Translations under genes and position numbers: made by a program
Part shown: one piece after another, positions 4,639 to 4,815 of the stretch
Numbering within the stretch: the stretch's first letter is position 1
How the letters are laid out: each line of letters starts with the position of its first letter
Source: a virus
Taxonomy: Duplodnaviria; Heunggongvirae; Uroviricota; Caudoviricetes
Reading direction: 5' to 3' (one strand)
Virus record (IMG/VR): IMGVR_UViG_2681813229_000016
DNA: 4,815 nt
Notes under the pieces: model-generated
What the model was told of the DNA's origin: nothing
Database searches by the model: none
The model's input: only the letters and a program-made list of their open reading frames with translations

Positions 4639-4815
4639 TCAAGCATTATGCAGGCTGTTTCTTTTTATCACCGGCCACAGCAATACCACAATGCCGCAGA
4701 CCAGCCCCCCATCCGCCAGCACCGACATGATTCTGCTGGTGAAATCCACCATCACCACCAGAAACAGCAGGAGTGCAGCCACAGCCAGACGCAGTTTTAC
4801 CGTCACAGGTAATTC
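4639..4815 (-). CDS. 3' end of a gene for a hydrophobic (membrane) protein; gene starts beyond the window end
   Basis: Minus-strand frame open from the window edge to TGA at 4641..4639. It reads ELPVTVKLRLAVAALLLFLVVMVDFTSRIMSVLADGGLVCGIVVLLWPVIKRNSLHNA: two hydrophobic helix-like segments and CTG-rich Leu codons typical of E. coli coding sequence. Identity unknown. Confidence 0.4.
   Translation of the reverse strand, partial: ELPVTVKLRLAVAALLLFLVVMVDFTSRIMSVLADGGLVCGIVVLLWPVIKRNSLHNA

Follow-up and report, generated by a model that had tools for sequence, protein, structure and literature searches.

The closest described relative of the gene discussed here is tciB of phage P1, which stands in the order tciA-tciB-tciC in the C1-controlled ban operon region and, like its neighbours, received its name by homology in the P1 annotation. 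According to the literature, the three P1 tci genes are transcribed during lytic growth and are non-essential by CRISPRi knock-down. A comparable arrangement, with a soluble TerB-fold protein encoded beside a membrane protein, is found in terZABCDE, and an interaction of TerB with TerC, an integral membrane protein, has been reported (Turkovicova 2016, as cited in PMC11003894). With regard to genomic position, a parallel is offered by stxAB of Stx-converting lambdoid phages, located downstream of Q and the PR'/tR' pair, often together with tRNA genes, and upstream of an sRNA of the STnc100 family, a nanS-p-type esterase gene and S-R-Rz. STnc100 has been described as a multi-copy, transcribed prophage sRNA of O157 that is related to the PasD sRNAs and, in Stx2 phages, is encoded 75 nt behind stxB. 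Class II (two-TMD) holins, such as S of 933W and phage 21, are also small late-operon proteins with two hydrophobic stretches.

Our analysis of a DNA stretch of 4,815 nt (hereafter the window) places next to these systems a gene at its minus-strand positions 4806-4639, which is almost certainly a complete tciB, coding for a DUF3927 protein of E. coli O157 lambdoid prophages. Gene, family and neighbourhood are all known already, with entries in Pfam, PHROGs and RefSeq. The product shares with P1 TciB (P1_gp075) the family, the length (54-55 aa) and the pattern D-F-T-S...L-x-D-G...W-P, the two proteins being approximately 50% identical, and in both cases the gene directly follows a TerB-like tciA. 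Contrary to P1, the window holds no counterpart of the third gene tciC (35 aa), its tciB belongs to a Q-dependent late operon, and the tciA partner is a pseudogene in the O157 loci identical to the window. The likeness to TerB-TerC also has its bounds: the Pfam scan gave no similarity between TciB and TerC, TciB is very small, and the other ter genes are absent from tciAB. The unit occupies the same slot as stxAB, but the two cargoes are unrelated in sequence and function and tciAB is not a toxin operon. Taken as a whole, our explanation, comprising the identity of tciB, its position in a cargo unit, a membrane pair of TciB and TciA and the orphan state of the gene in this prophage, is on balance probable.

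The tciB gene and competing reading frames

The minus-strand frame at the high-coordinate end of the window is open from the edge at 4815 to a TGA stop at 4641-4639. The first start codon in this frame is the GTG at 4806, which delimits a coding sequence at 4639..4806 (minus) and a small hydrophobic product of 55 residues (MTVKLRLAVAALLLFLVVMVDFTSRIMSVLADGGLVCGIVVLLWPVIKRNSLHNA). The product matched Pfam DUF3927 (PF13064) with 60.5 bits against a cutoff of 25 (E = 1.5e-16), residues 3-51 corresponding to profile positions 2-50 of 53, and PHROG 1470 ('TciB-like') over positions 1-54 of 54 (E = 1.5e-29). It carries K4, D21, F22, S24, L30, D32, G33 and P45, the invariant or near-invariant columns of the alignment, of which D21-F22, S24, L30, D32 and P45 are invariant between homologs. 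Many E. coli O157 chromosomes match the 516 bases at the window edge with 100% identity, and in the identical prophages the same ORF is annotated as a DUF3927 family protein of 55 aa (WP_000216629.1).

The sequence-only reading had singled out the frame at 4639-4815 for its strong hydrophobicity, which its product does show (GRAVY +1.35), and it is indeed a real coding sequence, given its DUF3927 match and the freedom from stops described below. That reading had further taken it for the C-terminus of a longer gene, of which the end alone was visible. This was mistaken, since the GTG start lies inside the window, a stop is found 26 codons upstream of it in the same frame of the identical O157 locus, and members of the DUF3927 family are nearly all stand-alone proteins of 45-65 aa. 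The proposal that a larger membrane protein extends beyond 4815, or that a plus-strand ORF beginning at ATG 4648 or ATG 4691 is the true gene, draws on the openness of the frame up to the window edge and of both antisense frames within the window; we give it next to no credence, as the annotation of the identical locus starts the gene at the GTG, and the upstream stop and the short family lengths speak against it as well.

The coding frame was compared between the window and seven phage homologs (Evi, PPyecE, JLK-2012, 434, P1, Pollock and Fostie). Stops were present in none of the eight sequences in the tciB sense frame, where the synonymous fraction of codon differences was 0.39, the highest of the frames. 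The in-register antisense frame (ATG 4648) was interrupted by stops in 4/8 sequences and had a synonymous fraction of 0.08; the Pfam scan of the product of this ORF (4648-4812, plus) returned no family match. For the plus-strand frame of ATG 4691 the synonymous fraction was 0.28, a moderate value that is expected because the third codon position of this frame coincides with the sense wobble position. Conservation of the ORF from ATG 4691 in place of the minus-strand frame, which the sequence-only reading had named as evidence against its own view, was not seen, the ATG being absent in 5/8 homologs. Both plus-strand ORFs were ruled out as the true gene by stops, synonymous fractions and the missing ATG.

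The antisense frame from 4691 (plus) continues beyond 4815, with 99 open codons in the O157 locus and 95-116 in most homologs. This long antisense openness is a geometric by-product of the sense genes tciB and tciA and could mislead readers who rely on ORFs. Two further candidates were rejected. A 31-codon ORF at 4646-4551, which overlaps the tciB stop and was considered as a tciC-like third gene, shows no resemblance to P1 TciC and is not conserved as an ORF in JLK-2012 or 434; STnc100 accounts for the nucleotide conservation in that stretch. A 61-codon ORF at 4538-4353, a gene call in one assembly, extends across both sRNA and terminator, and no family match was returned for the counterpart in phage 434.

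At its 5' side, tciB touches the end of tciA, which is written in a different frame: the last three codons of tciA (N-Y-L) and its TGA stop at 4805-4803 fall within the window (4803..4815, minus), the remainder lying beyond it. The codons at 4815-4807 upstream of the tciB GTG overlap these final tciA codons, and the tciB start and the tciA stop share a 4-nt GTGA overlap at 4806-4803. A GGAG is retained 8 nt before the GTG in the O157 locus. Because of this overlap and the position of the GGAG, tciB is probably translated by coupling to tciA.

Gene order of the late operon around tciB

From 4815 down to 1643 (3,173 bp) the window is 100% identical to O157:H7 loci, and the gene order was established from all places read with the exact TciB or the exact esterase. 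In the identical loci, a DUF968 gene, RusA, Q and approximately 240 bp of non-coding sequence precede the tciA remnant and tciB, which are followed by an intergenic region with STnc100, the esterase gene, DUF1378, DUF826, holin, YdfR, lysozyme and Rz. In these loci tciB is the second gene of a tciA-tciB cargo unit in the Q-dependent late operon, placed between PR'/tR' and the STnc100/esterase/lysis cassette. The Q protein (273 aa, PF03589) ends about 600 bp upstream of tciB, beyond the window edge. Immediately behind Q, an alignment with lambda PR' covers the -10 hexamer (TAAATT) and the sigma-70 pause element (AACGAT), reading GGTAAATTTG.C..AACGATGGG, and a hairpin with T7 is found about 50 nt past this match. 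These elements represent the expected PR'/tR' pair, which is located outside the window.

Downstream of tciB, beginning 8 nt past its stop, the STnc100 sRNA (Rfam RF02076) was found at 4465..4631 (minus) with 101.6 bits against a gathering score of 47 (E = 4e-23). The sRNA was identified by its covariance model; folding of the intergenic stretch was no more stable than that of shuffled sequence (z = 0.10). STnc100 follows tciB in Evi, PPyecE and JLK-2012 as well, and does not in P1, Pollock, Fostie and the Klebsiella phage. This distribution, along with the position of STnc100 behind stxB, indicates that the sRNA belongs to the esterase-side module and that tciAB fills the stxAB slot. A -10-like CATAAT at 4650-4645, within the last tciB codons, suggests that a promoter of STnc100 may overlap the 3' end of tciB; a promoter scan near STnc100 gave nothing at threshold.

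An intrinsic terminator at 4411..4437 (minus; stem 4437-4419) with an 8-bp GC-rich stem, a 3-nt loop and T8 is separated by about 30 nt from the STnc100 match and by about 90 nt from the esterase start downstream, and the same element occurs at 7379-7397 of the O157 locus L001. The sequence-only reading had regarded the window terminator as the late tR', before which Q would be expected. The element at 4437-4419 is instead the terminator behind an sRNA, distinct from the Q-proximal tR': STnc100 precedes it, a PR'/tR' pair directly follows Q, which ends some 600 bp beyond the edge, and the TciB product has no PF03589 match that would make it Q. Of the two explanations offered there for a hydrophobic product at this place, namely an organisation different from lambda or an inserted cargo or membrane gene, the latter was borne out, with tciB belonging to a tciA-tciB cargo pair between PR'/tR' and the esterase/lysis genes. 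The corrected map of the window edge thus comprises a complete tciB, the stop of a dead tciA and STnc100 with its own terminator, with Q and PR'/tR' outside the window.

The next gene of the late operon, at 2387..4324 (minus), codes for a SASA-family carbohydrate (sialate O-acetyl) esterase of 645 aa with DUF1737, SASA and DUF6645 domains. In PPyecE_EH1910, a match to the AgvB (anti-GcvB) sRNA with 96.5 bits was observed at 3371-3432 (minus), directly behind STnc100 and on the other strand; the window lacks it at the counterpart position.

The TciA partner and its decay in the O157 lineage

In Evi, PPyecE and JLK-2012, tciA codes for a TerB-domain protein of 143 aa directly before tciB. TciA matched Pfam TerB with E = 2.9e-16 and the TerB structure PDB 2JXU with E = 4.4e-8; its similarity to DUF533 and DjlA was weak and sub-threshold. 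A TerB-domain gene abuts tciB or overlaps it by up to 4 nt in Evi, PPyecE, JLK-2012, Fostie, Klebsiella phage 5 LV-2017, P1 and Pollock, a virulent N4-like phage. The tciA-tciB pairing was found in 11 of 15 species-level Enterobacterales loci, the remaining 4/15 being without tciA, and also in P1-like plasmids among the matches listed (284 plasmid matches). In phage 434, tciB is placed behind an unrelated membrane protein of 247 aa and has no tciA. As indicated by phage 434 and by the four species loci devoid of tciA, tciB can persist alone.

The DUF3927 family is small: 1.84 billion representatives yielded 116 clusters at 50% identity, and none of these clusters held a genuine TerB-DUF3927 fusion; the few long DUF3927 matches are either read-throughs of frameshifts or chimeras that include pieces of phosphatases or ABC transporters. 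In a scan of one genome per species the family was found in Enterobacterales only, the exceptions being a few short metagenome contigs whose labels are doubtful. Within this range the unit is abundant: the exact TciB protein was present in 4,166 index blocks of public assemblies, and tciAB in 1,145 of 5,426 complete E. coli genomes, at a median of 4 places per genome. The residual interest of tciAB lies in its being common, conserved across unrelated phage types and located at the same cargo position as the Shiga toxin genes.

JLK-2012 has tRNA genes for Asn, Thr and Gly ahead of tciA; P1 has Asn and Thr genes ahead of it and an Ile gene past tciC, and in the Klebsiella phage a tRNA-Thr gene is located upstream. 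Since tRNA genes occur near tciA in Evi, JLK-2012, P1 and the Klebsiella phage, tRNAs and tciAB tend to travel together. In Pollock, a group I intron match with 101.4 bits was noted at 3055-3407, about 450 nt downstream of tciA-tciB.

In the identical O157 loci, tciA (L001 6651-7013) is annotated in RefSeq as a TerB family pseudogene with an internal stop. Compared with phage Evi, which carries the same Q type, the O157 tciA has lost its first ~17 codons and shows a GAG to TAG change. Along with the tciA 5' end, the three tRNA genes found in Evi (Met, Lys, Arg) are gone from the region downstream of tR' (L001 6414-6650 versus Evi 1937-2631), and comparison of the two loci identifies the loss as a deletion or replacement. 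In E. coli O103:H2 FWSEC0007, among the closest whole-window relatives, tciB itself (2510-2647) is truncated to 45 aa (WP_001435346.1) and stands beside the same tciA pseudogene. The pseudogene and the O103:H2 truncation fit decay of the module rather than function, although intact tciAB copies are often found in sister prophages of the same genomes. As tciA has been inactivated by both a 5' deletion and a nonsense codon, the tciB of the window is probably an orphan, functional at most with intact TciA supplied from sister prophages.

Possible membrane topology and functional readings of TciB

TciB comprises two hydrophobic stretches, residues 7-20 and 26-47, with the polar DFTSR between them, and each end of the protein carries two Lys/Arg residues. 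The conserved DFTS(R/K) turn joins the two stretches, and a conserved Asp32-Gly33 lies inside the second one. Judged by hydropathy and charge distribution, a two-helix hairpin is plausible, in agreement with the two-helix product put forward in the sequence-only reading. The AlphaFold2 monomer model departs from it, showing one continuous helix over residues 3-54 with pLDDT 90.5 from a shallow alignment of 20 sequences that are at least 62% identical. No solved structure related to TciB was found. The protein would insert in the inner membrane, most likely as a helical hairpin with both termini inside (N-in/C-in).

By analogy with TerB-TerC, and with proteins such as DjlA and YebE/DUF533 that join a TerB-like domain to a membrane anchor, TciB would serve the soluble TerB-like TciA as a partner or anchor embedded in the membrane, a role that we propose tentatively and that may well prove otherwise. 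The expression of tciAB in lambdoid phages would follow Q antitermination; the pair would be made in lytic growth and would modulate a membrane-stress phenotype. A broader reading, to which we attach a lower probability and which is unlikely to hold in full, envisages a two-part membrane module shared by lambdoid, P1 and virulent N4-like phages, in which a TerB-fold cytoplasmic subunit and a DUF3927 hairpin anchor, expressed lytically, would protect or re-tune the host inner membrane or the timing of lysis, the unit competing with Shiga toxin for its slot and the orphan tciB working with TciA in trans. Were this so, the module might confer protection, e.g., against pore-forming colicins or superinfection, or might control lysis timing. 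In the PADLOC catalogue of anti-phage defence, TciB had no match and the TciA match was negligible. This result counts against the partner reading, as do the continuous AlphaFold2 helix, the absence of genuine TerB-DUF3927 fusions from the clusters, the dispensability of the P1 genes and the loci in which tciB persists on its own.

Several other readings of the TciB product compete with a hairpin anchor. The first hydrophobic stretch might be a cleavable signal peptide, leaving a single-pass or secreted mature product of ~35 residues; the record of phage P7 annotates a sig_peptide on the TciB homolog upf69.4, the N-terminus is laid out as an n-region (K4, R6) followed by an h-region, and AlphaFold2 returned no hairpin. 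However, the end of the h-region, V-M-V-D, offers no small-x-small cleavage motif, the DFTS just after it represents the most conserved residues of the family, and the first stretch is well conserved too, which is unusual in signal peptides, so that cleavage appears improbable. Still less can be said for TciB as a holin- or antiholin-like factor of lysis timing, which we consider very improbable: such a role would suit a small protein with two hydrophobic segments and a basic C-terminus, encoded in the late operon ahead of S-R-Rz, but TciB has no holin family match, the class II family (PF04971, Phage_holin_2_1) included, the prophage has its own class II holin as a separate downstream gene, tciB of P1 and of the N4-like Pollock lies far from lysis genes and still beside tciA, and the P1 gene is dispensable in the CRISPRi knock-down mentioned above.

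A further alternative agrees with the family assignment and disputes present function only. On this account the tciB of the window is a still-intact remnant of a decaying cargo module, functionless without tciA, whose ORF survives because O157 is young and clonal. The state of the locus lends it some weight, given that tciA lacks its start and ~17 codons and carries a TAG, the upstream tRNA genes of Evi are deleted, the holin in the same prophage region is frameshifted, and the O103:H2 relative has a tciB of 45 aa. Nevertheless, tciB has kept a well-spaced GGAG of its own, other copies of the unit in O157, some with intact tciA, could supply TciA in trans, and an orphan tciB persists in phage 434 too; loss of function in this copy is therefore a real possibility, to which we assign somewhat less than an even chance.

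The remains of the class II holin lie at approximately 1674-1515 (minus), where, relative to the O157:H7 locus, 58 nt (codons ~12-30, including the first TMD) are replaced by TT at the junction 1640-1643, resulting in a frameshift. The removed segment begins with GTC, and GTC also follows its end. This deletion is absent from all 5,426 complete E. coli genomes, the matches falling into two pieces that span 257 bp as against 201 bp in the window. Exactly at this break, identity to the O157:H7 reference locus changes from 100% (4815-1643) to 94.7% (1640-489), and the best whole-window match among complete E. coli genomes is 98.5%. The drop in identity at the holin deletion suggests that the window is a recombinant or an assembly chimera of sister prophages. 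In the interval from the lysozyme gene (1115-582) to the start of Rz (ATG 91, minus), the window is without the P22_AR_N antirepressor gene of the O157 reference loci and carries in its place small hydrophobic putative ORFs at 504-244 and 231-100 (minus).
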